From the NCBI GenBank assembly GCA_016748015.1, contig JAAOMT010000664.1, positions 194,715 through 258,714 on the forward strand: a stretch of 64,000 nucleotides of DNA, written 5' to 3'. A model generated the notes under the pieces. The model saw only the letters and a program-made list of their open reading frames with translations. It was not told the DNA's origin and ran no database searches. Source of the DNA: Geosiphon pyriformis uo1. Taxonomy: Eukaryota > Fungi > Glomeromycota. Both the position numbers and the translations under genes were made by a program. Shown one piece after another: positions 10,688 through 50,583 of the stretch. Position 1 is the first letter of the stretch; the number at the start of each line of letters is the position of its first letter.

Positions 10688-12757
10688 GAAAATGTTTTGC
10701 TGTTGGATTTGAATGCATGTTGAATAATATTGTCTCTTTCTCTGGTTCTGTAATGACTCTTATTGGTTGATCTGGATTTCTTCTGTTTTTCCAGTAAAGT
10801 ATATTTTTATAATTGATAAAATGTTTTGAGTATTTATATAATGTTGTAGTTGTTGATATTTTTGTATGTTCATCTTTTGTTATATTTTTGTTGGGTTTGT
10901 TCTGGTTTTGCTATATTTTTGGGTTGAGATGTTTTTAGATTTGTTTTATTCACAACAAACTATCAGCATTTTCATTGTCTTTTCTCTTTTTATAATGTAT
11001 AGTGTAAGTATATGGTAATAGTGCTATTTTCTATCTTGATTGTCTTCCATTTCTAAATTCCTGTTTATGAAGTGCTGTTAATCCCTTGTGGTCCATGTAG
11101 ACATCAAACTTCTGGCTCAAGTATTCATTCCATTTCATGACTGCCCAATAAATTGCTAAATGTTCTAATTCTGGTGTTCCATAATTTCTTTCAGCTGGAG
11201 TTAAACCTCAGCTGGCATATGTGACTAGATGTTCTCTTCCATCTAGTTCTCTCTATGATAGTACTGCTCCCAATGCTTGGCCTGCATTGGTGGTAATGAT
11301 GAATAGTTTGTTGTGATCTGGATAGATCAGTACTAGAGCTTGTATAAGCTTTTTTCTTAGAATATTAAAAGCTTCTTGTTGTGTTTTTGTCCATTCATAT
11401 TTCACATTCTTGATTTGGAGATGATTGAGTGGTTGGGCTATCTTGAAAAAGTTTTTGATAAAGCATCAATAATAGTCTGCAAATCCCAAAAATGACTTTA
11501 ACTCTGTTATATTGGTTGGTATTAGAAAGTTCTTGACTATCTCTATCTTTTCTGGATCTGTTTTGATGCTGTTTTTGCTTACTATGTGTCTTAAAAAGTT
11601 TAATTCTGTCTTGTCAAAGAAGTACTTATTGGTGTTTAACTTTAGCCCTACTCGTTGTAGCCTTTCAAACACTTGTTGTAAATGATGCAAATGATTATTG
11701 AATGTTTTGGAGAACACATTGGTATTATCTAAATAAACGACTACTGATTTCCACAATAAGCCAGTATATATTATTTCCATTAGCTGCTGGAATGTGGCTG
11801 GAGCATTTGTTAAGCCGAATGGCATTACTTCAAATTCAAAATTTCCCTCTCGTGTTATGAATGTAGTTTTTTCTTTGTCCATTGAATCTATGGCTACTTG
11901 TCAGTAACTACTATCTAAATCCAATGTTGAGAATCATTTGTTTCCTCCAAAAGCATCAAATAATTCCTGAATCCATGGAATTGGATAGCTGTCTCTATGC
12001 ATGACTCCATTAAGCTTTCTGTAATCCATGCAAAAGCAGATTTTCCCATTCTTTTTCTGGACAAGTACTATTGATAATGACCATGGGCTTATTGATGGCT
12101 GAATTAACCCATTGTCAAGCATCCAGTTGATTTTTTGACAAATAATTTCATGGCTGACAGGTGATACTCTGTATGCTCATTGTTTTATTGGCATAGCATT
12201 TCCAGTTTTGATCTGGTGCTGGATGATATCAGTTCTGCTGAATTCATTCTTGCTGGTGAAGATGTCTTTGAACTTGTTGAGCAACATCTTCAGTTGCATG
12301 CATTGGAGTGGGTCTAGATTTCCCATGTTCATTTGTTCCAATTGTTCTGGTTGGAACAAATAACATTCATTTCGTCCATATATTGTTTGTGATGTAATGT
12401 CAACATATCCACAAAGCTGTGGAAAGTCTGAAATGGGGTTTGGTGGTTGGTTTTCTATTTCAGTAGTTAAATGTTCTATGATGGTTCCTTTTGGTATCTC
12501 TATAACTTTTCCAGTGTTATTGTAAATGAGAATTTTGATGCAGCTATAGTTCCTGGCTGGTATGTGAAGATTGATAAGTCCAATTTCTCCTGATTCACAA
12601 CATGCTGCTTCTGCCTCAAAAATCTGGTTCTGATTCTTCACTTTCCTTTTTATGACTACCATATACTGGTTATATGGTGGAATAGAAATTAGTTGACCAG
12701 TGGAGATAATTTCTCCCTTGTTAATAATCTCTTCTTCTACCATATTAACTGGTATAT

Positions 12758-20592: not shown

Positions 20593-23500
20593 GTGCACCT
20601 CCAAAGGGTAAGAGTGCAAGCCAACCAAAAGAAAACCCCTTTTATGGTTTTAACCTAACTGATAATGATCATAATATAGATAAACTGGCAATTAACACCT
20701 CTGACTTAACAAAAAAAAAGAAGAAAGCCAAGATTGATTTCGTTCTAAATCCCAACAAAGTCTTAACTTCTGCTGCTGACAATAATAAGCCACCAAAAAC
20801 TAAGGTTTTTAAAAATTCTTCAAAGTTGGAACCTCCAGAAATAGTACAAAAATCTGGACCCTATTCTGTTGTTAAAGATTTTATATAAACCCCAGCACAT
20901 ATTACATTTGGCCAACTAATGATCCATCTACAGTTCAGAAAAGATCTTCACAAATCATTGATACCAAAAAAGAAGACACCAAAAACCAATAAGCATCTTT
21001 GTTAAGCTGAACTTGCTGACAACAGCAATGTTATTCCTCTGATTTGCAAAGCCCAAGTGGCTGGCTACTTTATTGATTTAATTCTAAACAGTAGATCATC
21101 TGTCAATGTAATTGCCAAACACTTTCTAGAAGCCATTGGAAGAAAAATTGATGAATCTTCCACCTGGTCTATGACCAATGTACATGGTGACAAAAAAAAA
21201 AATCTGGGTATAGCCAAAGCTGTTTTTGTTCACATCAATGGTATTAGCATTGAAACAGACATGGAAGTATTTGAAGCAAAAGAGTATACTATTATTGTTA
21301 GTAATGAGTGGCTTAAGAAAGCCAAAGCACTACTTGACTATAAATTTTGCAAACTAACCATCAGATGTGATAAAAAACTTATTGTAGTTAAATGCTGTTA
21401 TTGAACAACTCTTCTAGCAACCAAACAGAACCAAGAAGAAGAACAATCAAATGAATCAGATGATAATAAGAGTGATGATAAAAATCAAAAAAAACCAGAA
21501 GAAACTGCTGAACTTGCCTATACTATCTTTACCAGCAATGGCAAACTATTGGACAATGTTAAAGCTGACAAAGAAGAAATCATAGTAAATGACAAGCTAA
21601 TCTGCTGGCCCTACTATAATATCCTCAGAAGAACCTTTGACAGAAAATCTGGCAAGAAAGCCAAATACAGTTATTGGTGGCATGGCCTTTGTGGATGGTG
21701 CTGGTGTAATAAACCTTTGTATTTATCAAGTGATAAATGCAAATTTTGCCTGATCTATTACAAAAATTGAAAACCAATTAGCTTGATACCTTGAGAAGAA
21801 CTTAAAGAAGTACAAAAGTTTTTTGAGAATAAACCATCTAAAATTCAATCACTAATTGTAGAACAAAGAGAACCTTCCCCTAAAGAAAAAAAAATTGACA
21901 TTAAAAATCTGTTGGCTAGAAATAGCCCAGTTATTTCAAAAGAAAATTACACTCCTGAACAAACCCATGTGATACAACACACTATCACTACAAAAGAAAC
22001 TCATCTCATCCATTTGAAGCCTTATCAATCCAATTGACACAATGATAAGTTTATTAAAAAAGAAATAAACTGGATAAAAAATCTTGGATTCATACAAAAA
22101 ACCAAGAGTAAATGGGCTTTTTCAGTTGTAGTGGTATCCAAGAAAGATGGAACCCTACACTTCTGTGTTAACTATTGCCAACTAAATGCCATCACTATAA
22201 GAGACATGTACTCACTTCTCAAAATTAATACAATGCTAGATAAATTCAATAGTGCTGCTTTTTTCTCAACCATTGACTTAATTGCTGGATTCTGGCAAGT
22301 AGAGATGGATCCAGAAAACAGAAAGAAAACTGCTTTCATTACCAAGTATGACACTTATGAATTCACAGTCATGCCTTTTGGTCTTACCAATATTCCTTCT
22401 ACCTTTCAACATCTAATAGATAAAGTGTTTAAATCAATAAAAAAAAACTTTGTTCTAGTTTACTTAAATAACATAATGGTATATTCAAAAACCTGAGATG
22501 AATACCTTGAACATTTACAAAAGGTTTTTGACCTGCTCAAAAATGCTGGTCTTAAGATCAACCCAATCAAATCTTTTTTTGGATGCCAATCTACCCAGTT
22601 TTTTGGACATTTTATTACAAAAGATGAAATCTTTCCTGATCCAGCTAAAGTCAAAAAAGTTTAGAACATTAAACAACCAATAAATGTTCCTGAACTATGC
22701 TCTTTCCTTGGTTTGGCTTCTTACTATCGCAAATTTATCAAAGATTTCTCTAAAATTGCCTTTCCTCTTAATCAGCTACTCAGGAAAAATGTTAATTATC
22801 ACTGGGGCATTCATCAACAAAAAGCTTTTGAAATTCTGAAGAAAAAACTTGTTACTGAACTAATTTTCAAGTAACCTAATTTGGACCAACTTTTCATTCT
22901 TCACACTGATGCATCTGGCTATGGACTTGGTGCTGTTCTTTTACAGAAAAATAAAAATGACAGAGAACATGGCATAGCATATGCCAGTAGATCTTTTACA
23001 CCAGCAAAAAAAAACTATTCAGTTACTAAACAAAAATGTCTAGCAGTAGTTTGGGCTACTAGCTACTGGGATCAATATTTTTTTGGTGCAAAATTCTTAG
23101 TGGTAACAGATCATCAAGCCTTGATTTGGCTGTACAATAAAAAAAAGCTAGAACACAAACAAATAACTTGCTGGATACTCCACTTGGATGAATTTGACTA
23201 TAATATTCAACACCACAAAAGAGCAAATTATCAAAAAACTAATGCTCTCTCTAGACTTACCATCCAATAATAGTACAACTTCTCAAACCAAACCAACTTA
23301 ATTATTAGTAACTCTTTTACAAACAAACATGATAATAGATTTGAACAACTATTTTGCCTTAATGAAATTTTTGGGTAAAGAACAATACCTATCAAAATAC
23401 ACTCAACAGCAAAGAGAACATTTGCACAAACAATTAAATTTCTATTTGATCTGTCAGAACCAATTATATAAAAGAAACAGAAAATATCCTGACTGTCCTC

Positions 23501-24522: not shown

Positions 24523-25480
24523 TGTTACCAGTGGAATTTTAGCTATTAATTAGCATGAAATTATCTTCATAATTCTTATTATTAAGTAACATATTATTAT
24601 CATTTCGATTATTACTTATTAATTAGCCAATTTATCAAATATTATTACTCAATCAATAACTCGATTTGTACTATAAAAATTAAGATGCTCAAATTACACA
24701 ATATCCTGAACCATTTAATATAGTCAAAATTCGCCGAAATTAATGGAAAAATTGCCGAAATAATCAATAATTCGTAGAAATAACTTGTAGTTTGCCAAAA
24801 TGTATCTTTAGTTTACCCAAATTGTAGAAAAAAGAAAAGTGCAAGTTCAAAGACTAGTACTACAACAAGTTGTATAAAAAAAGAGCTTTTCTCTTCAAGA
24901 AAATGTATCTTTTCCATATTTTACCATAGTATTTTACTTTAGATATCTTAATTGAAACAAATTACTTTTTACAAAATCAAATAAAAATTAAATATTCAAA
25001 AACCAAATCCTCATAATTATTACACTTAAAATTCCCTTAAACACAACTAACATTTTGAAATTGATTAGCTACCAATTTCAATAAGCTGTTAGTGATTTCA
25101 GGCCTGAATAGAAAACGTTTCTCTTAATAAAATTCTATTTCTTTTACATTTCTTTTATTTTCTTATCATAATTATTAGGGTAGCCTATAGATGAGATTCC
25201 TGTAGAAGAGTTGACTTTCACAGCAAAATAACTATGCATTTTAGTGAGCTTCCAGATGAGCAATTCCTGAGAAAGAGTTGATGTTTACTACAACATAACT
25301 ATACAAAGTAACTGGCACAGAATTGGCCATTCCACTTATAAGCCCAGCAGTTCAAATTATAGGAAATAATTTGAAGATAAATTCAGTTATTGGAGGTTCA
25401 ACTACTTCTAGAAAACGTAAATTTACAACAAACAGACATTAACAACATTCAAAAAAAGAGACCAAAAACCTCCAGTAACA
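24523..25480 (+). repeat. Family B 5' LTR
   Basis: Direct repeat of 33420-34376; TG...CA termini. Confidence 0.95.
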
Positions 25481-25481
25481 T

Positions 25482-28400
25482 TTGGTGCTTTCTTATAGAA
25501 ATAACACAGCAACAACAAAATTCAAAGTGGTGAACACACCAGACACAACAACTCTAAAGTATTATCAGTCAATTTACATCCACTACAAGCAAAAATTCAA
25601 CATCTCAGACGGAATTGAAGTTATCAAGAAATCAGTATACCAATACATTGAAAACCACATCAACAATTATTTTTTTGGAAACTACAACATTTCAGAAGTG
25701 AGAAGCAATCTTTACAATAATTTAGTGCACTATTCACAATTGGGAACAGAAGACCTAAACAGTGAAACACTTGCTACCTACTTCCAAGAACTTAATTTTA
25801 ACATTATTGAGTATTGTGAAGAAAAATACCCAGTACAGTTCAAATACTCTTTTGACTTTGAATTAAAAACTAAACCAAGCAACAAAGACAAACAAAAAGT
25901 AAAACAATACTCAAAAACCACTCCAAACACTCCAATACTACCAAAGACAACTGCCAAACACTTGCAAACATCTGAACAAGGAACCAATATCAAATTACCA
26001 CTTTCTATTACACTATTTTTAATTTTACTTCCTCAACTACAAACACCAAATTCACCACTTAACTGTTTTTCCAGACCAGAAGATTATTAGTTACCTAGAA
26101 ATCCTATTCAACAGCAGAAACCCATATCAACAAGCACCAATATTATTGATTATTTACAAAAAATCGAAAGTAATCATTCAGAAAACTTGGAAAGTAAAAA
26201 AACTGAATCAAAACAAAAAGAAACCACAGAAAACGAAGAAGAAATGGCAACTGCTTATATTGCAAAGATTCCAGAATTCACTGGTGAAGACAATGATACC
26301 AGTCCTCAAAAATAGCTTGACAAAGTTCAAAAAACAGAAGATGCAAATGGTTGGAATGCAGCAAAAATGCTTAAAGCAATCTCATACTTTTTCCAAGGAA
26401 CTGTAGAAGAATGGTTTGAAAACTTAAGAGAACCATTTGAAAACTGGCAAGCATTCAAAGATGCTTTTCTCTAACAATTCACTGACAACAACACTTTTAT
26501 CACTCTCAGAAACTGCTTTTGCAATATCAAGCAAGAAACATTTAAAACTGTTATGACCTATCTTAGAAAATTCAACAAACTTCTCAGACAAATTCGACAA
26601 TTGGAAACCAATGACTACTATTCTAATGCTCAAATTCTGGATCAGTTTATAGCAGAGTTAAAAGACAAACTGATTAAAAAAGTCCACCCACATGTTCCAG
26701 CAGACTTAGCAACTACTATTAGATATGCAAAAAGCTATGAAATGGCAATGAAAGAAGCAAATCACACCAAGCTTGTAAATCTTGCAATTGGAGAAACCAG
26801 CTCAACAGCTGAAGAGAAGATAGACCAACTCACAAAGAAGGTTGAAAGCTATTTTACAAACCAACAACAACAGCAGCAATAACCACAAAGATATCAATCT
26901 TCACAATGATGCAATCAAAACAACTTTGGATCACCATCTAACAACCAATCTCAAATTTGTCATTATTGTAAAATTCCAGAACATTGGAAACAAAATTGCA
27001 AGAAATTACAAAAAAACCAACAAAACAAGAGTAATCAATGTTACTCTTCACCACAACAATCTTATTACCAACCTCCACTACTAACTTATTACTCACCAAG
27101 ACCACAAAATCAAAACAATTACTATTAACCAGCTCCACAACCAATGCAGCAACAATGTTAGCAACCTTTACCAATTCAGCAATATCAGACACCACTCATT
27201 CAACAATATCAAATACTAGCCAGAAGATTGGTTCAACATAACTAATTCACACCCCAAAATCAATTTCAAAATAACAACAACAGAATCAATCCAAATAACC
27301 AGTTGGTTTCTCAAAATTCTGGTCAGCAAAGACCCAATCACTATCACATTCAACTCAGTTATCTTACAATATCTGAAGGATCAGATTTTCAACAACCTGC
27401 ACTTTCTAAAAGTGAAGCTGCAGTACCAAGACAAAACTCTTTCAACAATACAATCTCACCAGCCAAATTGCTCAAAATGCCAACCTTTCAGATATATTTT
27501 CATTCGAATTTGAAGCAAATGAATCACCATTCTTGCTTAGAAATGCAGCAGCTAATGAACAAAAAGCTATCACTACTATGTACACTAAAGCTACAGTAGA
27601 AAGAAAACTCATCCAACTAATTCTAGACAGTAGATTAGCTGGAAGTATTATCACCTACCAGTTAATATAACAGCTTCAAAGAACTGTTGACAGACCAGCC
27701 CAAACTGTAATTGTTACAGCAGATGATATGAAAAAGACACCAATAAGAGAAATTGACAATTTTCCATTTACTATTGATGAAATTACCATTCCAGTCAAAG
27801 TTTTAGTTATGGATGCACCCCAATATTAAGCTCTGGTCGGAAATAATTGGCTTCTTAAAGCCAATGCAAACTTAGACTGGGAAACCCAGGAATTAAAAAT
27901 CTCATACCAAGGACAATACACCATAGTACTTGCTACTTGTGGAACTTTCAACAAACAATCAGAAAAAGCCCCAGTATTTGAATTTGAAGAGAAGAAAAAA
28001 ATGCCACTTATTAAAACTTACATGGCTCTTGGATCAACATTCAATTGGGCTGAGAAAACAGAACAAAATTTTTGAAGAATCAAGAAGATAGAAGAAAGTT
28101 AGATATTCCACACCAGAACCACGAAAAAAACCACCATACATTCCACTAAAATACAAAGATTGTAAAAAGAAGCTTTCTTTTATGAGAGCCTGTATTTTTC
28201 CAGAAGAAAAATATGAAACTTGTACCTGCTACTTTTGCAAAGCATGCCATAGAGAATGATTTAGATTCCCAAAAAGAAGTAGAAAATAGGATAACACACT
28301 TTGCTTCACATGTGAAGACATACTACCAGAAGAATACAACTGGATTGATATTGCAATAAGAGGAGAAGTATGTGATCAAATCTGTCAATATGCTCTATTA

Positions 28401-31137
28401 ATCTCAGAAAAAGTTAAAAGAGGAACACCATTTGATGCAGCATATAACAGTGCTCTCAACAAACTCTATTACTACCCTCATGATGCTAAAATGATCTTTG
28501 ACCTAGCAATGGCTTTAATTAATAGAGCCACACAAGAAAATGTCCACTAAATGAAAAAAGCTGAATATATTAAATATACAATGAAATTAGCTGGATTTGA
28601 TTATAAAGATAAAATAGAAACCTACCACCAAATTGCAAGCCACACATATTCAACCAAAGAAGTTCAAATTCAATGATTAGAGCAAATGAACATTCAATTA
28701 TGTAAAGAATGTGTTATGTCTTGCAATAACCAATGGTGTTTAGAATACTATGCTTTTAGCATTCCTCTGCCAGATGAAAATGAAATCGAATTTGGAGTAT
28801 TTGAATTAGTAGAAGAACTACCAACCACCCCTATCTACCTTTTTGAAAATCAATTACCCCTACAACTTAAATATTTCGACAACTATGGCCAAGGAATCAG
28901 ACCAGAAAAAGCACACAAAATTGATGCTGGATATAATCTAAGATATCCAGGAAAAGATACTTTAGTTCTTCAACCAAAATCTTTGACAAAAATCAATCTT
29001 AAAATTGCTCTTGAAATTCCACCTGGAGCAATGGTTCAAATTGCATCCAAATCATCATTGGCAAGCAAAGGAATCAATGTTAGAAAAGGAGTCATAGATG
29101 CAGGATATACTGGAGACATCACTATCATGTTGCAGAATGAAACAGACAAACCATTTAGGATTAAACATGTTGAAAAGATTGCCTAAGCAATTTATCTACC
29201 CTTAATCAACATTTCGGGTTTACAATCAGTAAACAACAGAAAACAATTGGAAAAAAATAAAAGAGGAACTCAAAATTTTGGTTTAACTGGACGATTTACA
29301 GTTCCAGTAAACATAGCTCTTAATACACAGAATGAATCACACCAGATTCTTCAACTTTTCCAACCAATTACCATTTCACTTTTTGGTGAATATCATGAAA
29401 TTTACACTTGCTCAAAACCCACCACTACCCAACAAATTTTTGAATTCAATGAACAAATCTGTCTAAAAAACGAAATCTTAATCCTAAACATTTATATTTT
29501 CAAAGGAATAAAAAAATTTTGACTCATATTCTACAATCCCAATAATTACCTTATTGTCTTAATAAACAAACTAAAAATTGGAATTATACACAGTAACATC
29601 TTTCAAGATAAAAACCCTTAAAGTGTCTCTAATTTCATCGAAATTGTAAAGCACACTTTACTTCCAAATCCAAATATCATTTCTACCACTGAAAACTACC
29701 ATCTTTTGGAAGAAAAACTCTCTTAAATTAACATGGGTCTCTTAGAACCTCAACAACAAAGACAATTGAAACAATTGATAGCTGAATTTGCAAATATATT
29801 TGCAAAAGACAACAATGACCTTGAGAAAACTGATATTGTTCAACATCAGATTCACACAGGAGATGCTCCACCAAAAAGACAACAAGCTTATCGAGTATTA
29901 CCTGCCAGCCATCAATTCATCAGGGAAAAAGTCCAAAAAATGCTCAATAATAGATTGATTCAACCATCAAGAAGTTCTTGGACCTTACCAATAGTTCTAG
30001 TTAAAAAGAAAAATGGAAAAATCAGATTTTGTGTTGACTACCAACAACTGAATAGTGTTACAATTGGAGATGCCTATCCTCTTCCAAGAATTGATAACAT
30101 GCTAAATGCTCTAGGAAAAGCCAAGTTCTTCTCAACTTTAGACTTGGAAAGTGGATACTGGCAAGTTGAAATAGATCCAAAAAATCGACCCAAAACAGCA
30201 TTTACCACTCAAGAAGGGAACTATAAGTTCAATGTTATGCTTTTTGGACTTTGCAATGCACTGGCAACATTCTAGCAACTCATAGATATTGTATATGAAT
30301 GACTTTTATGGCAATTAGTGGTTGTCTATATTGATGACACTGATGTATACTCACCAAGTTTTGAAGCTCATCTTATTTACCTGCGAGAAGTCTTTCAACA
30401 ATTATGAAAAGCAGGATTGAAGTTGAATATTAAGAAATATCACTTTGGAAACAAGTTTGATCTTTCTTGGACACATAGTTAGTAAAGATGAAGTCAAACC
30501 AAATCCAGAAACAATTAGTGCTGTCAAAAACTTTCAAACTCCCAGAAATACCACAGAACTGCGAGGATTTATAGGATTAGTCTTTTATTATCAAAAATTC
30601 ATAAAAGAATTCTCAGAAATTGCCAAATCACTCAATTATCTCACCAACAAAAATGTGTCATACAAATAGACAGAAAAACAACAAAATGCTTTTGAAACTC
30701 TCAAAACAAGATTAACAACAGCCCCAGTTCTTGCTTACCCAGACTTCAACAAATAGTTTTAATTAGCCACTGATGCTTTACATATAGTATTTGGTGCCAT
30801 TTTATCACAATTAGATGAAAATGACCAAGAACAAGTCATTGTCTATGCCAGCAGAACACTCAAACCACCAGAACTCAAATATGGCTCAACTGAATTGGAA
30901 GCCACTGCAGTTATCTGGGCTCTCAAACACTTTCAACAATACCTGAAAAATGGAAAAGAATTTGACATAATAACTGACAATATTGGCCTTAAATGGCTCA
31001 ATAAAAAGAAAACTGAACAAAGTGCCAAACAGTCTCAATGGAATGACTTCCTAGCAGACTACAGATATATTGTACACCACAAACCAGTAAAACTACACAC
31101 CAATGTTGATAGTCTTTCAAGAAAAAAACAAGAATAA
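25482..31137 (+). pseudogene. Family B gag-pro-dUTPase-RT-RNase H polyprotein
   Basis: Capsid-like IPEFTGEDNDTS at ~26270; knuckle CHYCKIPEHWKQNC ~26960; PR LILDS ~27617; dUTPase 28870-29290; RT (FCVDY, LDLESGYWQ, VYIDD) 29733-30440; RH ending DSLSRKKQE* at 31137; numerous stops and frameshifts. Confidence 0.9.
28870..29292 (+). pseudogene. dUTPase domain of family B pol
   Basis: Motifs DAGYNL, QIASKSSLA, GVIDAGYTG, EKIA*A, RGTQNFGLTG. Confidence 0.9.
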
Positions 31138-31194
31138 CACCAACAACAATTCCACCATAACTTACCAACCTACCAACAAAATAACCAAACAACA

Positions 31195-32579
31195 ATGGAT
31201 TTCAGAAACTACAACAATCTTAAAAACTATTTGGAGACTCTTACCATGCCAGAAAATTGGTCTTCAAGTAAAAAACATCGTTTACAACCCCAATCAAAGC
31301 AATATTTCATACATCACAACAAAATTTATTATAAAAATCACAAAAACCCAAACCAACCACTCAGATTAATACAAGAAAATAAAAAAGAAACAATTTTATA
31401 CAACATATACACAGATCCGTCTTCAGCACACTTGGGAAGAGATGGAACAATTCAAAGAACTCTTGAACATTATTTTTGGCCTCACATACAAAAAAACATT
31501 TGACAATATGTAGAATCTTGTAATATTTGTTAAAAAAAAGAAGGAACTCACTCCACAGAACCTTTAAATCCAATCAAAATTGGACAGTCTTTTGACAGAG
31601 TTGGAATTGATTTAGTCAAACCATTACCTATCACAACCCAAGGAAATCATTATATTGCAGTTGCAGTAGATTATTTTACCAAATAGCCAGAAGCTAGAGT
31701 CATCCAAAAAGCAGATGCAAAATTAGTAACAAATTTCATATATGAAGACATTATTTATAGACATGGATGTCCAATTGAACTCTTATTAGATCAAGAAACA
31801 CATTTTGTGAACAACCTAATACAAGAAATTTGTGAACAATTTAATGTCAAAAGACCTCTATCATTATCTTATTACCCTCAAACAAATAGACTTGTAGAAC
31901 ATTTCAACAGAACATTGTGTGAATCTTTAGCCAAAGTTTTAACAAATTTTGAGCAGGAATAGAATATCTTTATTCCATCAGTGTTACTAGCATACAGAAC
32001 ACTAAAACAAGATACTATAAAACACATACTATTTGATCTTACTTATGGAAGGACAGCAATATTACCAGTTAATTTCACAGTAGAAACATATCCAATGCAA
32101 CCAATCAATGAAAAAAACTTCCAAGAAACACTCCAAAAAAGAGCCTACACTATTCTTAGCACATTAGAAGAAAAGAAACACATAACAGCCATTCATATTG
32201 AATACTCCCAAGCTCTACAAAAAGAAAGACATGACAACAAACTGCCACCAGTTATCAATAAATTTAAGATTGGAAATAAAGTTTTTTTACACAGAACTAA
32301 GACTGAAAAACAATAGAATAGAAATTTGAACATAAATGGGATAGACTATTTTATATCCATGAAATTTTAGGCAATAGATTATACAAGTTAAGACTTGATG
32401 ACAAAGTACTAGTAAAAGTTGTATATAGAGATAGATTGAAACACTATTTTTTCAGAAACAATCCTGAACCATTAATTCTACAAATTGGTACACATTCCCT
32501 TTTAGTTAATCCTGAAAATATTCTTCAAAATTTAGAACCAATAGTTATAATAAAACAACAACCAAACTTGAACACTTAA
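31195..32579 (+). pseudogene. Family B integrase (separate ORF)
   Basis: ATG 31195 MDFRNYNNLKNYL; HHCC remnant (AHLG..CNIC); core GIDLV, DQETHF, LVEHFNRT; GPY/F-like tail; no chromodomain; stop at 32577-32579. Confidence 0.85.
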
Positions 32580-32731
32580 TTTAATATTTATAATAATCTT
32601 TTGAAAAATATAGACAAAATATAAAACAAAAATAGTAAATGATCACAAGAAACATTCAAACCCAAAAACAAAAACCCTATACCCAAAAATAATTTTCTTT
32701 ATTCTTTTCTTTATTAGCTAGTCATTTTATC

Positions 32732-33385
32732 ATGATTATTTTCCGAAATATTCAACAAATATCCCAAAAATTAATGTTAGCCTTGAAAACACTTTCTGAC
32801 TTATCCATAACGATTAATGAAAGTCAAATTAATTACATTCAGAAAAAAACCACAGTCCCAGTAGTAAATAATGCTCAGAACTATCACTCCTATAGAAGAA
32901 AAACAAGAAGTCACTCTGAAAATAGGTTACCAGAACTTTTGAAGCAAGTATTGAAAGAAAATCTTTTAATTGTCCCTATTGACATTCCACCAAATGCCAC
33001 ATTGCAACAAAAACTTCTACTATTTCTCAATGAACAGAACAATGAATATACCTTTATATATAGATATTTTCATATTGAAAAAACACTTTATGAACGAAAA
33101 CTAGAACTTGAAGCAACCAACATCACTCCTGAGACTGTACAAAAACAAATTCACAATGAATTTAAGGCAGCAGCTAGACCAACAAACACTTGCTACAAAC
33201 TTAGAGCAGCTTTTAGACTTTATGATTTGTTCAACACTTGTAAAAATGTCCTACAAAATCCAATACTGCAACCAATAAAAGTTCAATACATTGGCAAACT
33301 CACAGAACTGAAATTTCAACAATTTTCAGACCAAATTACTTCAATTATTCTGGACCACTATCTTGACATCACAGATAGTACTTAG
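32732..33385 (+). CDS. Family B accessory ORF3 (217 aa, unknown function)
   Basis: Uninterrupted ORF between IN and the PPT; same position and similar size as family A ORF3. Confidence 0.7.
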   Translation: MIIFRNIQQISQKLMLALKTLSDLSITINESQINYIQKKTTVPVVNNAQNYHSYRRKTRSHSENRLPELLKQVLKENLLIVPIDIPPNATLQQKLLLFLNEQNNEYTFIYRYFHIEKTLYERKLELEATNITPETVQKQIHNEFKAAARPTNTCYKLRAAFRLYDLFNTCKNVLQNPILQPIKVQYIGKLTELKFQQFSDQITSIILDHYLDITDST

Positions 33386-33419: not shown

Positions 33420-34376
33420 TGTTACCAGTAGAATTTTAGCTATTAATTAGCATGAAATTATCTTTATAATTCTTATTATTAAGTAACATATTATTATCAT
33501 TTCGATTATCACTTATTAATTAGCCAAATTATCAAATATTATTACTCAATCAATAACCCGATTTGTACTATAGAAATTAAGATGATCAAATTACACAATA
33601 CCCTGAACCATTTAATATAGTCAAAATTTGCCGAAATTAATGGAAAAATTGCCGAAATAATCAATAATTCGTAGAAATAACTTGTAATTTGCCAAAATGT
33701 ATCTTTAGTTTACCCAAATTGTAGAAAAAAAAAAGTGCAAGTTCAAAGACTAGTACTACAACAAGTTGTATAAAAGAAGAGCTTTTCTTTTCAAGAAAAT
33801 GTATCCTTTTCATATCTTACCATAGTATTTTACTTTAAATATCTTAATTGAAACAAATTACTTTTTACAAAATTAAATAAAAATTAAATATTCAAAAACC
33901 AAATCCTCATAATTATTACACTTGAAATTCCCTCAAACACAACTAACATTTTGAAATTGATTAGCTACCAATTTCAATAAGCTGTTAGTGATTCCAGGCC
34001 TGAATAGAAAACGTTTCTCTTAATAAAATTCTATTTTTTTTACATTTCTTTTATTTTTTTATCATAATCATTAGGGTAGTCTACAGACGAGATTCTTGTA
34101 AAAGAGTTGACTTTCACAGCAAAGTAACTACACATTTTAGTAAACTTCTAGACGAGCAATTCCTGGAAAAGAGTTGACATCTACTACAACATAACTATAC
34201 AAAGTAACTGGTATGAAATTGGCTATTCCACTTATAAGCCCAACAGTTCAAATTATAGAAAATAATTTGAAGATAAATTTAGTTATTGGAGGTTCAACTA
34301 CTTCTAGAAAACGTGAATTTACAACAAACAGACATTAACAACATTCAAGAAAAGAGACCAAAAACCTCTGGTAACA
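33420..34376 (+). repeat. Family B 3' LTR
   Basis: Direct repeat of 24523-25480, preceded by the PPT and followed by the TSD. Confidence 0.95.
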
Positions 34377-34520
34377 TTGTCCTGTTTATGGTACATGACT
34401 TAAGAAATATTATAAACGACCTAATTGGCTGCCTGTTGTGATAATACCAACTCAATTGATCAGCAAAAATCAAGTATAAATAAATACATCATTTCTAAAA
34501 CAGAAGTATCTTCAATTGAC

Positions 34521-40243: not shown

Positions 40244-41874
40244 TTTTTTTTTTTTTTTTTTTACATTTTACGAATGAGATCCAAACACTACTTAAAGCTA
40301 CACATCAAAGAAATGATCTATACTAGACATGAATCATGTATTGTCTACACATGACCAGCTACTCGGGCCAATCAGAACAACACTACTCAGATATACGAAC
40401 TGAAACTAAACTGCCTACACCAGAAAAAAACAAACATGGTTTACGAAAACCGAAACAAATGTCCACAGCCTCAGTGATATCAAGCAGCTTGACAACACCA
40501 GCAAAAAACCCCGAAACCAGACCAGAGACTGAAACAGGTGTTGAACTATCCAATGGAATCAACTTGGCCTTTTTCATGTAAGCATAATGCTTAGCACAAA
40601 CTATCCAAACACCATCCCTAAAGGCAAGACCAAGAGAGCACACAAACTTAACCACCTCCAATTCTGTAATTTTGGGGTCACGGAACACAGAAACAGCCTC
40701 GTGAAACCAATCATTAAACACAAAACCCTTGCATAGAGCCACAAACACAGGGAAATCAGAAGCACAAGATGACAAAAGCTGCATTACAACCGATGAGAAG
40801 AGTGACAAACCAGTAAGAGCCTTCCAAAAAGCCACGTGAGAATCCAATATCTGACTACGAGCAGAATCGTCAATTTTACAAAAAAACACATGGTCCGAAG
40901 ACTCCACATCACCACAATATAAACACAGCACACTAGGGTAATATTTATTATAAAGACGCTTCCTTACAGCAACAGGTAACCAGTAATGCAGAGCCTTCAT
41001 GAAATAGGTATGAGCATTAGCTAAGGGCCTGCTAGTGAAGCTGGTGGCCATGTGCGAGTCAGGATGCCAGACTATAGAAGAGCAAAACCAGTCAACATTA
41101 AAAAGCAAATCATCCTTCAAAAACCTAGCACTAGAACCAACTTCCCAGCGTGCGCGACAAATTGATTGGTAGATATCACGAACAAAGTGTCTCAAATTGC
41201 CTGAAACCACACCACCATCAGCCACCAGAAAATGTTCATCCAAGCGAGAACGCAGACGCCAACTGGAAAGAGAGACAATGCCAGCAATTTTATCAGCACG
41301 CTCATTACTAGAAACGCCAGAGTGACCTTTGACCTTGTGCCAACTAACTCTCAAATTTTTACTACGAATAATATTAGCAATATGCTGACGTTCAACCCAA
41401 CACTGATTGTGAAAGTCAGAACACACAAGATCTATTTCTGACTTACAAGCACTCAAAGCAGACTGACTATCAGAAAACATGCGAACGGAACAGGACAAAG
41501 GGACACACTCCATGGCCAATGCAATAGTCTGCAATTCTGCAAGGATGAATGACATCAAGCCTGATACACCAACCCCCAAACCCAAATCAATGTCCTCGAA
41601 AAAAGCAGTAGCACCAGCTCTACAGCCAGCAGTACCCAAACTTCTCAAAGATCCATCCGTGTAAACAGACAAGCTACCAGAAATGACTTGAGAAAGATGA
41701 CCACAAACAGAAGCATAATCAGCAGAACCAAAAATATCTTGATAAACAGCACCATCTGAGACAAACTGATCATTAGAAAGGAGAGAAGCATCATTGAGAA
41801 ACGCAGTAGCAAGCTTGAATCATTCCGGAACAGGACCATGGGGGTCCAGCCTCTTCCACCACTTGAAGGTATAC
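40244..41874 (-). mobile_element. 5'-truncated, relatively young LINE (ORF2 C-terminus, 3' UTR, poly(A)) with ~12-bp TSD
   Basis: T-run at 40244-40262; TSD TAAAAGTTTTTT at 40238-40249 and 41875-41886; higher GC and retained CpGs. Confidence 0.9.
40383..41872 (-). pseudogene. LINE ORF2 C-terminal fragment: RNase H and CCHC zinc finger
   Basis: VYTDGS, AELQ, FSDSQ, VKGHSG..NERAD (RNase HI catalytic motifs); CLYCGDVESSDHVFFC; 429 open codons. Confidence 0.9.
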
Positions 41875-42573: not shown

Positions 42574-42978
42574 NNNNNNNNNNNNNNNNNNNNNNNNNNN
42601 NNNNNNNNNNNNNNNNNNNNNNNNNNNNNNNNNNNNNNNNNNNNNNNNNNNNNNNNNNNNNNNNNNNNNNNNNNNNNNNNNNNNNNNNNNNNNNNNNNNN
42701 NNNNNNNNNNNNNNNNNNNNNNNNNNNNNNNNNNNNNNNNNNNNNNNNNNNNNNNNNNNNNNNNNNNNNNNNNNNNNNNNNNNNNNNNNNNNNNNNNNNN
42801 NNNNNNNNNNNNNNNNNNNNNNNNNNNNNNNNNNNNNNNNNNNNNNNNNNNNNNNNNNNNNNNNNNNNNNNNNNNNNNNNNNNNNNNNNNNNNNNNNNNN
42901 NNNNNNNNNNNNNNNNNNNNNNNNNNNNNNNNNNNNNNNNNNNNNNNNNNNNNNNNNNNNNNNNNNNNNNNNNNNNNN
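42574..42978. other. Assembly gap (N run) between two head-to-head family A LTRs
   Basis: Run of N. Confidence 1.
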
Positions 42979-43588
42979 TATTTTTAGATAGTGATCGTTG
43001 ACCTAATCAATGACCTGACTGTTGACTTGATCATTGACCTGATTATTGACCTGGTCATTGACCACTTTAGATAGCTATATAAGCGATGATTCCCTTAGCT
43101 GTAGAATAACATGATCAAAGTAACGAAATAAAACAATATCAATTACTTCCTTTCATATCACTTATTTCCCTTTCCTTACCTTCAAGTATCTACTTGTTGG
43201 CATTTACATACCTTATCTTTTCCCCTTCTTGATTTGTATTTGTTAGAATTAGTCTGAGAAGCAATTGGCTTGCTCTTGTAATTCATTGAATAAAGAAACA
43301 ATTGAAAAGTACAACAATACCTGTTATTGATTCTAAGAATCACTGAGTTGAGGCATAGAATAATAGTAGCGGTGTTATCTTGTTGACAATCACAGACTAT
43401 TCCTTTATCTTCAAATTTAAGAAAAGATTAGCGACTGTGATTTTTATGAGACTGATCATGCACATTGAATTCCTACTTATTCAATTTGCTCCCTTATTGT
43501 AATTCCCTCTTTGTTTATTTTCATCACCATACAATACTGTTCTTCTTTACTATCTGTTAGCTTGTTACTCCAACCCATAACATAAAAG

Positions 43589-43634: not shown

Positions 43635-45185
43635 ATGGATGATTACTCATATCTGCCACAGCAATCAGAAGAACACTTTGCAGCACACAACAGAAACAAT
43701 CTAAATTTCATTGAACTTAATCTTCTGCTCTCCTGCTTGATCTGTTTCCCCCTTGAAGAACAATCCAGTAGACAATTCCAAGACTTTTGGAACTAGTTTC
43801 TGAACAAGCATTCAGCTGAAACCTACACAGCTTATACAACCTATTACTTTGACCAAGCTTATTTTGAAAACAACTTTGAAGAAAGAAACAACAATATTAA
43901 TCAACTCTTATATTCTGCAATCTTTGAACAACAGCCTCCTGATTTCGAATATCTGAATCATCAAATCCACATTTGGATTGCTGCCCATCAAGCAACTGAA
44001 ACTCCCTTTGAAACAGAAGAAGAAAGTTACCAAACTGCCCCTGTTTTTGACCTTTTATTAAGTGAATCAGACTCGTCTACACAAACAGTTACCCCTGAAC
44101 CAATGGCTAATGACCCCATGCAAGCAAACATTCTGGCTGTTCTCCAAGGTATACAAACTGCTTTAGGAAGAAGAAACAATACTCCACTACTACTATTTAG
44201 AGGTGATGTACAAGATTCAATTAAATGGTTAGATGATTTTGAGAGAGCTGCCACAGCCAACCAGTATAATAAAAAATACAAGTTCCAAATCATTGGTGGC
44301 TACCTTCAAGGCTCTTCTGCTACCTGGTTCTCACAAGAAACAGATGCCAATGCTCAAAACAGAATAATCAGATGGACACCAATCAATGCTGGAGAAGAAA
44401 ATACCTCTTTCACTACCCAATTTGAGGCCAAGTTCAGAACCCCAATATTAATATCCAAATGGCACATGGAATTGGAAAGAAAAACCCAAGGTCTTGGAGA
44501 AGTAGTGACTGAATATGCCAAGACTATTAGAAAGCTAATCAAATGTGTAGACTTTGGGAGAAATTGGACAAAAGAGCAGAAAATTCACTCCTTCACAAAA
44601 GAATTGAGAACTGATTTATCATATGCTCTTTGGCCCCTCCTGGCCCTGAAAGATAACCCCACCATGGATATGGCCATTGAATTAGCACAAAGAATTGAAG
44701 ATAACCAAAGGATGCACTTGGGATCCACACTACTAGTTTTTGCTCCTGCTCCTGTCATGGCTCCTGCCCCTCAAATGGCTGCTACTTCTTTTGCCACTCA
44801 CATTCAAGATCCAAATGAACAGTTAATAGACAGACTCACAGCAAATCTTGCCTGGTTATTAGAACCCTTAGCCCAAGCAGTCAGAGAAAATTAACAACCA
44901 CAAAGACCCAGATTTGAACCACGTTTCAATCAGCCCCAGCAACCATCTTATCAAAGACAACAAAATTGTGGCCCACCTGTATGCTATTGCTGTGGATTAA
45001 CTGGACACTTTTCAAGAGATTGCAACAATCCTCCACTGCCTCCACCAGTTCTCAGAAACAATGATGCTCAGAACAACAGACCCAACAACAACAATGTGCC
45101 CAACCAAAAACCCAATCATGCCAACATCAATTTCTTTGGAGAGGATTCCCTAGTTGAAGCCACTGTTTATCAGCCTTTAAACTGA
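43635..45185 (+). pseudogene. Family A gag
   Basis: ATG 43635 (MDDYSYLPQQ) to TGA 45183-45185 in one frame with two premature stops; capsid-like FRGDVQD..WLDDFERAA; knuckle CYCCGLTGHFSRDC. Confidence 0.85.
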
Positions 45186-45214
45186 TAGGTGCACCTCCAA
45201 AGAGTGAGAGTGCA
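45176..45214 (+). promoter_or_regulatory. Putative -1 programmed ribosomal frameshift signal (slippery heptamer + stem-loop)
   Basis: T TTA AAC in gag phase directly before the gag stop; the -1 frame is open into protease; hairpin TGCAC-CTC...GAG-A-GTGCA begins 7 nt downstream. Confidence 0.75.
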
Positions 45215-47871
45215 AGCCAACCAGAAGAAAACCCTTTTTATGCTTTTAACTTAACTGATGATGATCATGACATAGATAAACTAGCAATCAACCCCTCTGA
45301 ATCCACAAGAAAGAAGAAAAAAGCCAAAGTTGATTTTGTTCTGAACCCCAATAAAGCTTTTATATCAACTGTTGACAACAATGAGCCCCCAAAAGCCAAA
45401 GTTTTCAAAAACCCTCCAAAGTTGGAACTCCCAGAAATAGTACAAAAATCCGGCCCTTATTCTGTTGTCAAAGACCTCATGGAAACCCCAGCACATATAA
45501 CCTTTGGCCAATTGATGACCCATCCACAATTCAGAAAAGATCTTTACAAATCTTTGATTCCAAAGAAAAAGACACCCAAAACCAACAAACACCCTTGCCA
45601 AGCTGGACTTGCTGACAATAGCAATGTCACTCCTCTAATTTGTAAAGCCCAAGTGGCTGGCTACTTCATCAATTTGATCCTAGACAGTGGATTATCTGTT
45701 AGTGTTATTGTCAAATACTTTCTTGAAGCAATTGGCAGAAAAATTGATGAACCATCTATACAACCAATGACCAATATGCATGATGATAAGAAAAAAGAGC
45801 TTGGCATAACCAAAGCTATTCCTGTCTGCATCAATGGCATCAGCATTGAAACTGATATAGAAGTATCTGAAGCAAAAAAATACACCATTATTGTTGGCAA
45901 TAAATGGCTCAAGAAAGCAAAAGCTTTGCTTGATTATGAACTCTATGAACTAACCATCAGATGTGGTAAGAAACCCATTGTGATTAAATGTCGCCATTGG
46001 ACAACTCCCCCAGTACCCAAGCAGAGCCCAGAAGAAAATGAATTAGACAAATCAGATGATGAAAAAAGTGAGGAAGAAAAAAAACAAAAAGAACAAGAAG
46101 AAACTGCTGAACTCGCCTATACCATCTTTACCAGCAATGACAAACCACTGGATAATGTCAAGGCAGATAAAGAAGAAATCATTGTCAATGACAAGCTAAT
46201 CTGCTGGCTTTATTATAACATGCTCAGAAGAACCTTTAACAGAAAGCCAGGCAAGAAAGCCAAATACAGTTATTGGTGGCATGGTCCTTGTGCCCGGTGC
46301 TGGTGCGACAAACCATTGTATTCTCCTAGCAATGAATACATGTCCTGCCTAATCTATTACAAAGATTGGGAACCAATCAGCTTAATACTCCGTGAGGAAA
46401 TAAAAAAAGTCCAAAAGTTCTTTAAAAACGAACCACCTGAAATCCAATCACTGGTTGTAGAACAAAGAGAACCCTCTCCAGAAGAAAGAAAGATAGACAT
46501 TGAAAACCTGCTGGCTAGAAACAGCCCAGTTGTCTCAAAAGAAAATGAACCTCCTGGACATACACATGTGATACAATACACCATTATCACCAGAGAAACT
46601 TGCCCCATCTATTTGAAGCTCTATTAATCCAACTGGCACAATGGTGAGTTTATCAAAAAAAAGAAATAACCCGAATGAAAACCCTTGGATTCATACAGGA
46701 AACCAAAAGTGAATGGGCATTCCCAGTTGTAGTGGTATCCAAGAAAAAAGGAACCCTACGCTTTTGTGTTGACTATCACCAATTAAATGCCATTATTGAA
46801 AGAGACATGTACCCACTTCTTAAGATTGATGCAATGCTAAACCAATTCCATGGTGCTGCTTTTTTCTTAACCATTAACTTAACTGCTGAATTTTGGCAAG
46901 TAGAGATGAATTCAGAAAGCAGAAAGAAAACTGTCTTCATCACCAAGTATGGCACCTACAAATTCACAGTCATGCTTTTTGGTCTCACAAATGCTCCTCC
47001 CACTTTTCAATGCTTAATGGACAAAGTATTTGAATCAGTGAAAGAAAACTTTGTTCTAGTCTACTTGAATGACATAATGATATACTCAAAAACCTGGAAT
47101 GAACATCTTGAACATTTGCAAAAGGTTTTTGACCTCCTTAGAAATGCTGGCCTTAAGATCAATCCAATCAAATCATTCTTTGGACGTCAATCCACTCAGT
47201 TCCTTGGTCATCTTATTACAAAAGATAGAATCTTCCCTGATCCAGCCAAAATTGAAAAAGTTCAAAACATTAGACAACCAATGAATTTTCATGAACTACG
47301 CTCTTTTCTTGGTTTGGCCTCTTATTATCGCAAGTTTGTTAAGAATTTCTCCAAAATTGCCACTCCTCTCAATCAGCTACTTAGGAAAAACATCAATTAT
47401 CATTGGGGCACTCATCAACAAAAAGCATTTGAAATTCTGAAAGAAAAACTGGTTACAGAACCCATCCTCATGCAACCTAATCTGGATCAACCTTTTATCC
47501 TCTATACTGATACATCTGGCTATGGACTTGGTGCTGTTCTTTCCCAGAAAGACGAAGATGGCAGGGAACATGCCGTAGCATATGCCAGTAGAACTCTCAC
47601 ACCAGCAGAAAGGAACTACTCAGTCACAGAGCAAGAATGCTTAGCAGTAGTTTGGGCTACCAGTTACTGGGACAAATATCTTAAAGATGTAAAATTTTTG
47701 GTGGTAACAGATCATCAAGCTTTGGTTTAGCTATGCAACAAAAAAAACCTGGAACATAAACGGATAACTCGCTAAATACTTTACTTGGATGAATTCGACT
47801 ATGACATTCAACACTGCAAAAGAGCTAATCATCAAAACGCCGACGCTCTCTCCAGACTTACCATCCAGTAA
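45176..47871 (+). pseudogene. Family A pro-RT-RNase H
   Basis: PR LILDSG; RT FCVDY, FGLTNAPPTFQ, VYLND; RH TDTSGYGLG, EQECLA, VTDH, ADALSR; ends TAA TAG at 47869-47874. Confidence 0.9.
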
Positions 47872-47936
47872 TAGCAAAACTCTCTCAAACCAAACCCACT
47901 TAATTATTTGTAACTTCCCCACAAACAAACACGATA

Positions 47937-49250
47937 ATGGATTTGGACAATTACTCTGCCTTAATGGAATTTTTGGGTAAAGGACAATACCCGCCAGACT
48001 ATACTTAACAGCAAAGAGAACATTTGCGCAAACAATCAAATTTCTATTTGATTCACCAGAACCAATTATATAAAAGAAATAGAAAAAATCTTGACTGCCC
48101 CCAGAGAGTCATTAGATTTGAAGAAAGAGAAATTGTGATCTACAATATGCACACTGATCCATTAGCTAGACACTTTGGAAAAACAAAAATGATTCAGAAA
48201 ACTTTAGCTCGCTATTATTGGCCTATCTTGGAAAAAGACATTGCTGAATACATCAAAACCTGTGATACCTGCCAAAAAAGAGAAAAACCCAATCGCAAGG
48301 AAGATATCCATCCAATCTCTGTTGGTTAATCATTTAACAGAATTGGTATAGATGTTGTTGGACCTTTAACAGTAACTCCTGATGGCAACAGATACATTAT
48401 TACAGCTACCAACTATCTTACAAAGTGGGTAAAAGCAAGAGCCACCCCAGATTAAACAGCAGTCTCAATTGCCAATTTCATTTATGAAAATATCATTTGT
48501 CGCCATGGCTGTCCCAAAGAACTTTTATCTAACAGAGGAAGAGCTTTTCTCAGTACACTGGTTGAAGAACTTTGCAGAAAAATGGGAATACGTCATAAAC
48601 TCTCTTCCCTTTATCACCTCCAAACAAATGGCCTAGTAGAACATTTCAATAGAACACTATGTGAAACCCTAGCCAAAACCAGTGAAGAAACCAACTTATG
48701 GGACAAAGTATTGCTTTCAGCTTTGTTCGCCTACAGAACTGTGAATCATGACATAACAAGTTATGAACCCTTTTATCTGCTTTATGGACAAATAGCAACT
48801 TTACCAATAGAAATGGATATAGAAACAATACCTTTTGAAGAAATAACAATAGGAGATTACAAGGACATTTTGCAAAAAAGACTTGGTACTATTCTTGATT
48901 TATTGGTAAAAACACAAATAATTGCCTTTGAAAAAATAAAACAGTTCTAAGAGAAGCTCAAAAAGAAAAAGACCTATAAAACACTTTTCTTAAGTGTTAG
49001 TGACTTAGTTTTGGAATACCATTCAGACAGAGACAATGTCTATGGTAATAAATTCTCCAGCCACTGGAAAAGATTTTTTATAGTCAACAAAGTTTTGAAC
49101 AATGGTTCATATATCTTACAAGATCAATATGGAACAATATTCAGTGATTGTCCTGTTTATGGCACACGATTCAAGAAATATTACAAACGACCTAATTGGT
49201 TACCTGTTGTGGTAATACCAACCCAAATAATCAGCAAAAATCAGATATAA
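47937..49250 (+). pseudogene. Family A integrase (separate ORF)
   Basis: ATG 47937 MDLDNYSALMEFL; HHCC (HTDPLARH..CDTC); core IDVVG, GLVEHFNRT; GPY/F-like tail; no chromodomain. Confidence 0.87.
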
Positions 49251-49291: not shown

Positions 49292-49948
49292 ATGAACAAT
49301 TATTTCCTAGATCAAAACATTCAAAATGCTTTCTATACTCTCCATGAGTACTGGATTAAGAACTATCCAAATGCTACTCTGACTATTGGAAAACAAACCA
49401 CCATAACAGACAACAGTGGAACTCACACTGTTATCAGACTAAAGAAAACAACTACCAGAAGAAAAAGAATTGGTGGCAAAATGGATAAATACCTACTGGA
49501 AGGCATAACAGCAGCGATACTTTCATCTTCCAGCACAATTGGAAAAATAATACAAGAAATCTTGCCCATAGACAAAAACTTGTCATATGGAAGACAACTA
49601 GAACTCTATGGTTGTCTTGGTGAAATTATAGAAGACATGAAGCTCATGAAGAAAACAACTTCAGAGATACAAGGGGAAATTTTGGGCATTATACGATTGG
49701 ATGTCCCAAGAGTTTTGACCATTGCTAGAAGAGCCAGAACTTTTATACAAAGATTTGGTCTCTTGGATACAAAACTTATTTCACCTCAAGTATTATATAC
49801 CCTATCCACAAAAAACTTCAACAAACTAGTTAGTTTTGAGTTAGACAAAACCCTTCACATAGACTATTCCATAAATAGCTTGATTTTGTCAGAGCTCAAT
49901 CTCTTTGGAGAGAATGATGTTATGATTGAAACTCATAGTTTTTATTAG
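49292..49948 (+). CDS. Family A accessory ORF3 (218 aa)
   Basis: Uninterrupted from ATG 49292; stop lies 30 nt inside the 3' LTR. Confidence 0.75.
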   Translation: MNNYFLDQNIQNAFYTLHEYWIKNYPNATLTIGKQTTITDNSGTHTVIRLKKTTTRRKRIGGKMDKYLLEGITAAILSSSSTIGKIIQEILPIDKNLSYGRQLELYGCLGEIIEDMKLMKKTTSEIQGEILGIIRLDVPRVLTIARRARTFIQRFGLLDTKLISPQVLYTLSTKNFNKLVSFELDKTLHIDYSINSLILSELNLFGENDVMIETHSFY

Positions 49949-50583
49949 TTATCACATGTATTAGCCACTGATATCATATAATTAGCCACCCTATTTTTAG
50001 ATAGTGATCATTGATCTGATCAATGACCTGACTGTTGACTTGATCAATGACCTGATCGTTGACCACTTTAGATAGCTATATAAGTGATGATTCCCTTAGC
50101 TGTAGAATAACATGATCAAAGTAACGAAATAAAACAATATCAATTACTTCCTCTCATATCACTTATTTCCCTTTCTTTACCTTCAAGTATCTACTTGTTG
50201 GCATTTACATACCTTATTTTTTCTCCTTTTTGATTTGTATTTGTTAGAATTAGCCTGAGAAGCAATTGGCTTGCTCTTGTAATTCATTGAATAAAGAAAC
50301 GATTGAAAAGTACAACAATACCTGTTATTGATTCTAAGAATTGCCAAGTTGAGGCATAGAATAATAGCAGCAGTGTTATCTTGTTGACAATCATGGACTA
50401 TTTTTCTACCTTCAGATTTAAGAAAAGATTAGCAACTGTGATTTTTATGAAACTAATCACACACATTGAATTCCTACTTATTTAATTCGCTCCCTTATTG
50501 TAATTCCCTTTTTGTTTATTTCCATCACCATACAATACTGTTCTTCCTTGCTATCCATTAGCTTGTTACTCTAACCCGTAACA
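49918..50583 (+). repeat. Family A 3' LTR of copy 3
   Basis: Direct repeat of 42979-43582. Confidence 0.93.

Follow-up and report, generated by a model that had tools for sequence, protein, structure and literature searches.

The placement of integrase (IN) within Pol is the presumed means by which retroviruses and long terminal repeat (LTR) retrotransposons dose and pack the enzyme. IN is listed as a domain of pol in the ICTV profile of the Metaviridae (PMC7879559). In the available portion of PMC5972666, ribosomal stop-restart is reported for the retrotransposons SART1 (at UAAUG) and LINE-1 (across a 63-nt spacer), and that of PMC2699510 puts stop-restart at the UAAUG of fungal CHV1 at 2.5–4.4%. 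For foamy virus, the accessible text of PMC5035957 describes mature IN alone as inefficiently packed. Here, we describe LTR retrotransposons in a 64,000-nt stretch of Geosiphon pyriformis DNA (the window; contig JAAOMT010000664.1, positions 194,715–258,714) in which IN is a gene of its own. The split is real and is a lineage-wide departure from the Pol polyprotein. The lineage is a large one of Ty3/Gypsy-type elements, likely of Glomeromycotina, or mycorrhizal-type, fungi, with decayed copies in the window.

Four copies (A3, A2, B and C) are found in the window. In each, the pol frame stops four codons past the RNase H end motif, and spacers of 65, 64, 57 and 61 nt, respectively, lead to a Met at an equivalent position (ATA in A2); all of these coordinates, proposed in an initial annotation, were verified (Table 1). 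The fixed four-codon tail does not extend beyond the window: of 42 related loci, 35 have a tail of 2–26 codons and seven one of 69–587. The window spacers are 66–88% A+C with at most 5% G and are unfolded, and their sole ATG is the in-frame one of A2. Decay stops, which make up 0.5–1.8% of codons in the reverse transcriptase (RT)–RNase H frames, are too rare for the stops of three families to coincide at the same codon by accident: the chance for A3, B and C is ∼1e-6, or 3e-5 if any of 25 codons is allowed. In contigs of run X1 (1,456 pieces of family A, possibly from the window's own sample and hence not independent), position 47870 is G in 81% of the summed depth, giving TGA, which is still a stop; among the variants listed, one-base spacer deletions occur at 47880 (5 contigs) and 47881 (3), and no joint crosses the A3-type spacer. 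The A3-type element is barely covered in runs X2 and X3.

All window copies are heavily mutated, with CpG observed/expected ratios of 0.17 in A3 and 0.11 in B, compared to 0.74 in the intact relative L007, as expected if methylation-driven decay had depleted CpG. Such mutation would also suit a reading in which the stops arose by decay, or in which IN is a mere passenger, either dead or supplied by a helper. We regard this as extremely improbable, and it is already refuted by intact split elements. Besides the chance calculation above, the pol frame of intact relatives reaches 1,600 codons and their IN is full-length at 400–430 codons, with every catalytic residue; HHCC and DDE are retained in 81 of 81 aligned INs. 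Furthermore, B is inserted into the integrase gene of A2, where it carries a 4-bp target duplication (TTGT) and LTRs that are 94.5% identical; thus, a split element did integrate.

Among the best 80 of 487 related metagenome loci, both the RNase H end and IN are visible in 43. IN lies outside pol in 42 of these, and one (L074) is fused; 24 other loci show the IN start only and 13 are cut. Protein searches lead to the same picture. Among 120 listed IN homologs (38–77% identity; the named ones are from Geosiphon and Rhizophagus), 95 have a Met in the column of window position 47937 and 93 begin there, in a search that was restricted to 228–727 aa and so favours IN-only proteins. A search with RT–RNase H for long proteins admits both split and fused forms. 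Among the matches listed, 85 of 92 long homologs with at least 46.5% identity are without IN; the other seven are two truly fused proteins, which fall outside the split group, and five R. clarus gene models from which the conserved RNase H end is missing. Below 46.5% identity, 19 of 28 carry IN and nine do not. In a search for long IN-bearing proteins, three Glomeromycotina gene models came top and the rest were far weaker. Gag-Pol proteins without IN are recorded several times for Rhizophagus irregularis, a cultured species, which makes experimental tests practical. IMG/VR yielded no useful relatives, and the GTDB contigs contained three stray split-type contigs, a few other Gypsy contigs and many bacterial transposases. 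These split-type contigs (L084, L085 and L086) lie inside bacterial genome bins, one of a Gigaspora endosymbiont, and are likely fungal contamination.

A tree of IN, built from 92 selected rows, recovers the 53 split rows as one group (support 93), which also takes in two fused rows on long branches. A tree of RT, from 76 selected rows, places 35 of the 37 split rows in one group that includes one fused row; forcing all 37 into a single group improved the likelihood (p-AU 0.88). Unnamed fused relatives served as the comparison in both trees. A single origin of the split is thus neither rejected nor proven by these alignments. The initial annotation had read the elements as polycistronic (gag-PR-RT-RH, IN and ORF3, where PR is protease, RH RNase H and ORF an open reading frame) in three separate families. 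Intact relatives bear out IN as a separate cistron under selection followed by ORF3, and a single locus in 43 reads RNase H into IN. However, family A does not read gag and pol as one frame, the split characterises a whole lineage and not three separate families, and in many relatives the stop and start codons overlap with no spacer between them.

Could RNase H and IN nevertheless be made as one protein, through splicing of the spacer, frameshifting or readthrough? One recoding event would suffice at 20 of 43 junctions, but not at the other 23. A readthrough context was found at none of the 43 pol/IN stops, and a slippery heptamer at one of eight possible −1 windows (L070), in a test of −1 signals; nine of the joinable junctions are +1 cases. 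In contrast, TTTAAAC, TGA-CTA or TAG-CAA-TTA is present at 10 of 13 gag/pol or PR/RT junctions of the same elements; we take these to belong to the known frameshift and readthrough motif classes. These signals serve as an internal control. TTTAAAC, which precedes the gag stop of A3, is also found at the gag end of L001, L014 and L037, and family A likely joins gag to pol by a −1 frameshift, judging from this motif. A readthrough-type in-frame stop lies just upstream of RT, and does not separate gag from protease, in L017, L042, L043, L046, L066, L088 and L053; in L043 and L046 it follows gag-PR.

Splicing fares no better at the sequence level: a GT upstream of the stop is missing from 20 of 35 junctions, an in-frame intron is possible in eight and a consensus-like donor is present in one. 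Six Glomeromycotina gene models in NCBI do join RT to IN, but they delete the conserved RNase H end, and in two of them (P0125 and P0348) the position of the join differs although the INs are nearly identical. All six (P0124, P0125, P0345, P0348, P0350 and P0356) omit the RNase H end and the IN start and are likely annotation errors; some fungal gene models thus splice wrongly across the pol/IN junction. A fused product would also leave an invariant Met in Kozak context without explanation, and we consider it very unlikely.

The IN start itself appears to be a genuine initiation site. A purine occupies position −3 of the IN AUG in 50 of 60 loci, compared to 53% in the background (P 9e-7) and 62% at internal Mets; the set leaves out L074 (fused) and L078 and L090 (doubtful starts). 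Residue 2 of IN is Asp, Glu or Asn in 95 of 95 proteins, which we take to match the substrate rule of the NatB acetyltransferase, although it could also be a plain helix cap. The start lies near that of prototype foamy virus (PFV) IN after cleavage, with profile position 61 aligned to chain position 54.

The distance from the pol stop to the IN AUG ranges from −14 to 521 nt across 43 non-redundant junctions, with the three frames represented 12, 15 and 16 times, and includes TAATG and ATGA overlaps. In all 13 overlaps anchored by RNase H, the stop is within 14 nt of the AUG, compared to 26 of 88 virtual stops in the same frames of non-overlapping elements (Fisher 1e-6); as the overlaps derive from four lineages and 10 distinct states, P lies between 1e-6 and 0.008, the latter for four lineages only. 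L038, L067 and L080, whose upstream ORF was chosen under a distance limit, are left out of this test. Stop-AUG proximity looks to be under selection. The spacer tests leave out L028, L046 and L084 (broken or unexplained long gaps; the 727-nt pol-IN gap of L046 has no long ORF). Spacers of at most 200 nt contain eight ATGs, compared to 30 expected, and 19 of 25 are free of ATG. Out-of-frame ATGs in pol just upstream of the stop are not depleted, which, together with the AUG-poor spacers, suggests a ribosome entry point near the pol stop. In two longer spacers ATG is not depleted and small ORFs are present; those of L050 are chained by gaps of 32, −13 and −8 nt. Gaps of −4 and −4 nt link the ORFs of L038, and gaps between IN and ORF3 include −1, −4 and −8 nt. 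In L038, IN is preceded by two ATGA-chained ORFs instead of pol, one with an Mrr_cat_2 nuclease-like domain (E 5e-9).

Based on the overlap stops near the AUG, the AUG-poor spacers and the chained small ORFs, we lean toward IN being made by stop-restart translation on the same RNA, which is the best-supported mechanism. Stop and restart codons are close, as reinitiation would call for, in all 13 overlaps, and the window spacers are of LINE-1 size. In this reading, a stop and an AUG would have taken the place of the protease site ahead of IN in a single ancestral event. After termination of pol, the small ribosomal subunit would stay on the RNA and restart at an overlapping AUG or, in the window, after scanning ∼60 nt of an unstructured, AUG-free, A/C-rich spacer. 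The same process likely recurs at the IN/ORF3 junction. Free IN might then enter the particle by binding genomic RNA or RT, with foamy-virus Pol as a model of RNA guidance; alternatively, it may meet the cDNA after uncoating.

A subgenomic mRNA, whether transcribed from a promoter inside the element close to the pol end or spliced from the 5′ leader, as for foamy-virus pol or retroviral env, would explain the Kozak context, the AUG-poor spacers and the tolerance of varied spacer length, and would yield more IN than reinitiation; foamy virus has both a spliced pol mRNA and an internal promoter (in the available text of PMC5035957). This route does not predict stops within 14 nt of the AUG. Acceptors are not enriched in the 60 nt before the AUG (88 YAG observed, 84.8 expected), and TATA-like boxes show no upstream excess (15 of 49, compared to 16 of 49 inside IN). 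The NADALSR codons were also considered as a branch point plus acceptor and rejected: they have no codon bias, with AG at the Arg of LSR in 21 of 34 cases versus 248 of 400. A subgenomic origin seems to us unlikely, though it is a candidate to be taken seriously.

Eighteen loci of a sister subclade have a two-stem covarying hairpin immediately upstream of the IN AUG, which occurs nowhere else in 89 sources. It has an A-rich internal loop and a CAnnGUGA loop, and in 16 aligned copies eight of 10 pairs vary at both positions, more than in any of 500 shuffles, although the structure was derived from the same sequences. No copy was found in the window or in IMG/VR. Searches of Rfam 15 with 14 loci, to E 5, returned two weak matches elsewhere and none on the hairpin, which may yet be kin to a curated family. 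Nine of 10 loci with an acidic region and Cys/His-rich domain, fused after RNase H at the usual place of IN, have the hairpin, compared to one of 38 without a visible domain; these belong to one clade and do not prove co-evolution. The Cys/His domain has no real match in Pfam.

Internal ribosome entry, independent of pol translation, could draw on such an element, which starts 36–73 nt before the AUG, and on the G-poor, unfolded spacers of the window; A-rich internal ribosome entry sites exist in yeast. However, the 13 overlap-type junctions have no spacer, the hairpin is missing from the window and from L084 of its own subclade, and an entry site would not need a stop close to the start. We consider internal entry quite unlikely. 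A more elaborate picture, which we hold to be rather improbable as a whole, is an operon-like LTR retrotransposon in which a single RNA would combine frameshifting or readthrough with stop-restart and with a novel RNA switch acting in cis. ORF3 would be a TAV-like reinitiation factor or a loading adaptor for free integrase, and, in one subclade, the RNase H-fused Cys/His domain would bind the hairpin before the IN start and so set integrase output.

Several points weigh against a lineage-wide split served by stop-restart. The loci were retrieved with an IN-only query, which biases them toward split elements, sister loci are non-independent counts, and the free trees place one or two fused rows inside the split group. 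ATG is present in six of the 25 short spacers, and an out-of-frame ATG (49255) lies ahead of ORF3 in A3. According to the portion of PMC10275272 available, reinitiation of the termination upstream ribosome-binding site type drops beyond ∼30 nt, whereas the window spacers measure 57–65 nt. After a pol that is itself limited by frameshifting, reinitiation at a few percent would leave the element with hardly any IN. A subgenomic RNA that starts near the pol stop accounts just as well for the AUG depletion and the Kozak context, and plain scanning is hard to square with the stable hairpin that 18 sister loci place directly ahead of the AUG.

ORF3 forms a conserved family. Iterated profiles place 38 of 54 candidates (six of them seeds) in one family, including the ORF3s of A3 and B, and the A3 protein is matched (E 1.6e-4) by a profile from which it and its two closest relatives were left out. 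It is 82% identical to a G. pyriformis protein, and its Met (49292) is the first residue also in homologs of ∼30% identity. The members are mostly 120–290 aa and helical, and one is predicted to be a compact 143-aa helical domain (pLDDT 95). Nothing above noise was found in Pfam (TAV family included), PDB sequences, Foldseek (PDB and BFVD) or VIA (best Z 5.1), which does not show a new fold; matches in Atlas were uninformative. We rejected ORF3 as an Errantivirus-type Env glycoprotein with surface and transmembrane domains, as it is helical and without a Pfam match. In A3 (49918–49948), and apparently in B (∼33420–33440), ORF3 continues past the polypurine tract and enters the 3′ LTR.

The window consists of nested repeats adjoining a RhoGAP-domain host gene. 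The A3 integrase ORF has four decay stops within its first 415 codons, and the IN of C is interrupted by another repeat at ∼10686. A repeated element with an RRM and zinc-knuckle ORF, resembling a non-LTR ORF1, occupies the intervals given in Table 1, and two of its copies interrupt C. On the minus strand, a 478-codon open frame contains a domain of the Pfam RNase_H type, which differs from that of the Gypsy elements, and is probably a non-LTR 3′ end.

Table 1. Positions of features in the window, or in the locus named
Feature	Position	Strand	Remarks
A3 5′ LTR	42979..43582	+	start hidden by N gap 42574-42978; 91% identical to 49992-50583
A3 gag region, decayed	43797..45185	+	tblastn with intact L007 gag-pol; frame ends past slippery site
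A3 TTTAAAC heptamer	45176..45182	+	just before gag stop, then predicted stem; likely −1 frameshift site
A3 pol (protease, RT, RNase H), decayed	45158..47871	+	ends LSRLTIQ-stop; Pfam RVP_2, RVT_1, RT_RNaseH; translation
A3 pol stop TAATAG and 65-nt spacer	47869-47936	+	stop pair 47869-74; A/C-rich, 5% G, unstructured, no ATG
A3 IN ATG	47937	+	
A3 integrase ORF, own Met	47937..49250	+	N-terminal extension, HHCC, DDE core, C-terminal domain
A3 ORF3, 218 aa	49292..49948	+	conserved helical family; through polypurine tract into LTR
A3 3′ LTR	49918..50583	+	TG...CA
A2 pol stop TAATAG, 64-nt spacer to ATA, decayed IN start	23268..23337	+	ATG ATA ATA at 23329-37
B 5′ LTR	24523..25482	+	
B dUTPase domain	28677-29183	+	between protease and RT
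B pol stop TAA and 57-nt spacer	31135..31194	+	88% A+C, no G, no ATG; IN ATG 31195
B integrase ORF, decayed	31195..32579	+	
B ORF3, open stretch	32693..33385	+	homologous to L003 ORF3
B 3′ LTR	33420..34378	+	94.5% identical to 5′ LTR
C pol stop TAA, 61-nt spacer, IN ATG	10871..10937	-	TAA 10937, ATG 10873
C dUTPase domain	∼15200-15670	-	between protease and RT
RRM/zinc-knuckle repeat	2195-4549, 6894-9256, 9259-10686, 12785-15198		
478-codon open frame	40383-41819	-	
RhoGAP-domain host gene	60037-62935	-	apparently intron-bearing
Acidic region and Cys/His-rich domain	L007:4345-5163		also 10 other loci; 32 long-tailed proteins
Hairpin before IN AUG	L006, L007, L010, L013, L015, L016, L018, L019, L028, L029, L032, L041, L051, L054, L055, L056, L072, L085		
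Two ORFs before IN	L038:3-2436		
pol-IN gap	L046:6274-7000		

No LTR element with a separate IN gene was found in the full-text literature, a scope that excludes subscription journals, Repbase and supplements; none is described in the available parts of PMC10508981, PMC2582038, PMC5911963, PMC2864245, PMC3248453, PMC12440569, PMC13465315 or bioRxiv 2021.03.30.436303. Troyka was considered as a prior description and rejected, its IN being inside Gag-Pol or Pol in the accessible text of PMC12440569. A successful lineage without Pol-linked IN shows that the link is dispensable and raises the question of the route of free integrase to the cDNA. The dozens of natural junctions form a series for studying reinitiation after long ORFs in fungi, and the lineage adds an uncatalogued RNA element and a protein family.

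Like canonical Metaviridae (PMC7879559), the elements have LTRs (paired in A3 and B), primer-binding-like sites (a TGG start after the LTR), polypurine tracts, a 4-bp target duplication (B), gag (Ty3_capsid, Retrotrans_gag and zf-CCHC in intact relatives; window copies matched by tblastn) and the domain order PR-RT-RH-IN, and the closest solved structure to the split IN by sequence is Ty3 IN (E 9e-52). Unlike them, they keep IN outside pol and follow it with a non-Env ORF3. We file them as a derived lineage of the Metaviridae rather than as canonical members. The comparisons that follow draw on the available portions of the sources. Tat elements (PMC10508981) are also Gypsy elements with an enzyme, an extra RNase H, in a separate ORF, and fungal Gypsy elements with a dUTPase (PMC2864245) have it between protease and RT, as B and C do; in both, IN stays in pol. 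Foamy-virus Pol (PMC5035957) is likewise made apart from Gag and packed through genomic RNA, and its IN starts at about the same place; however, the whole Pol comes from a spliced mRNA and protease still releases IN. Caulimoviridae (PMC5902531), with their polycistronic RNA and TAV, also reverse-transcribe, keep separate ORFs close together and have an accessory ORF at the 3′ end, but have no integrase, and the ORF3 described here has no Pfam match, TAV included. In CHV1 and the victorivirus HvV190S (PMC2699510, PMC10275272), fungal ribosomes restart at an overlap after a long ORF, and the UAAUG junction of CHV1 is also present in this lineage; these are RNA viruses with one fixed junction, whereas the distances here vary from −14 to over 100 nt. 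LINE-1 ORF2 and SART1 (PMC5972666) also place a second long retrotransposon ORF after a short spacer or a stop-start overlap. They are non-LTR elements in which the junction is that of ORF1 and ORF2 and no capsid has to pack the product, and the mechanism, tested there, is a proposed one for the elements described here.

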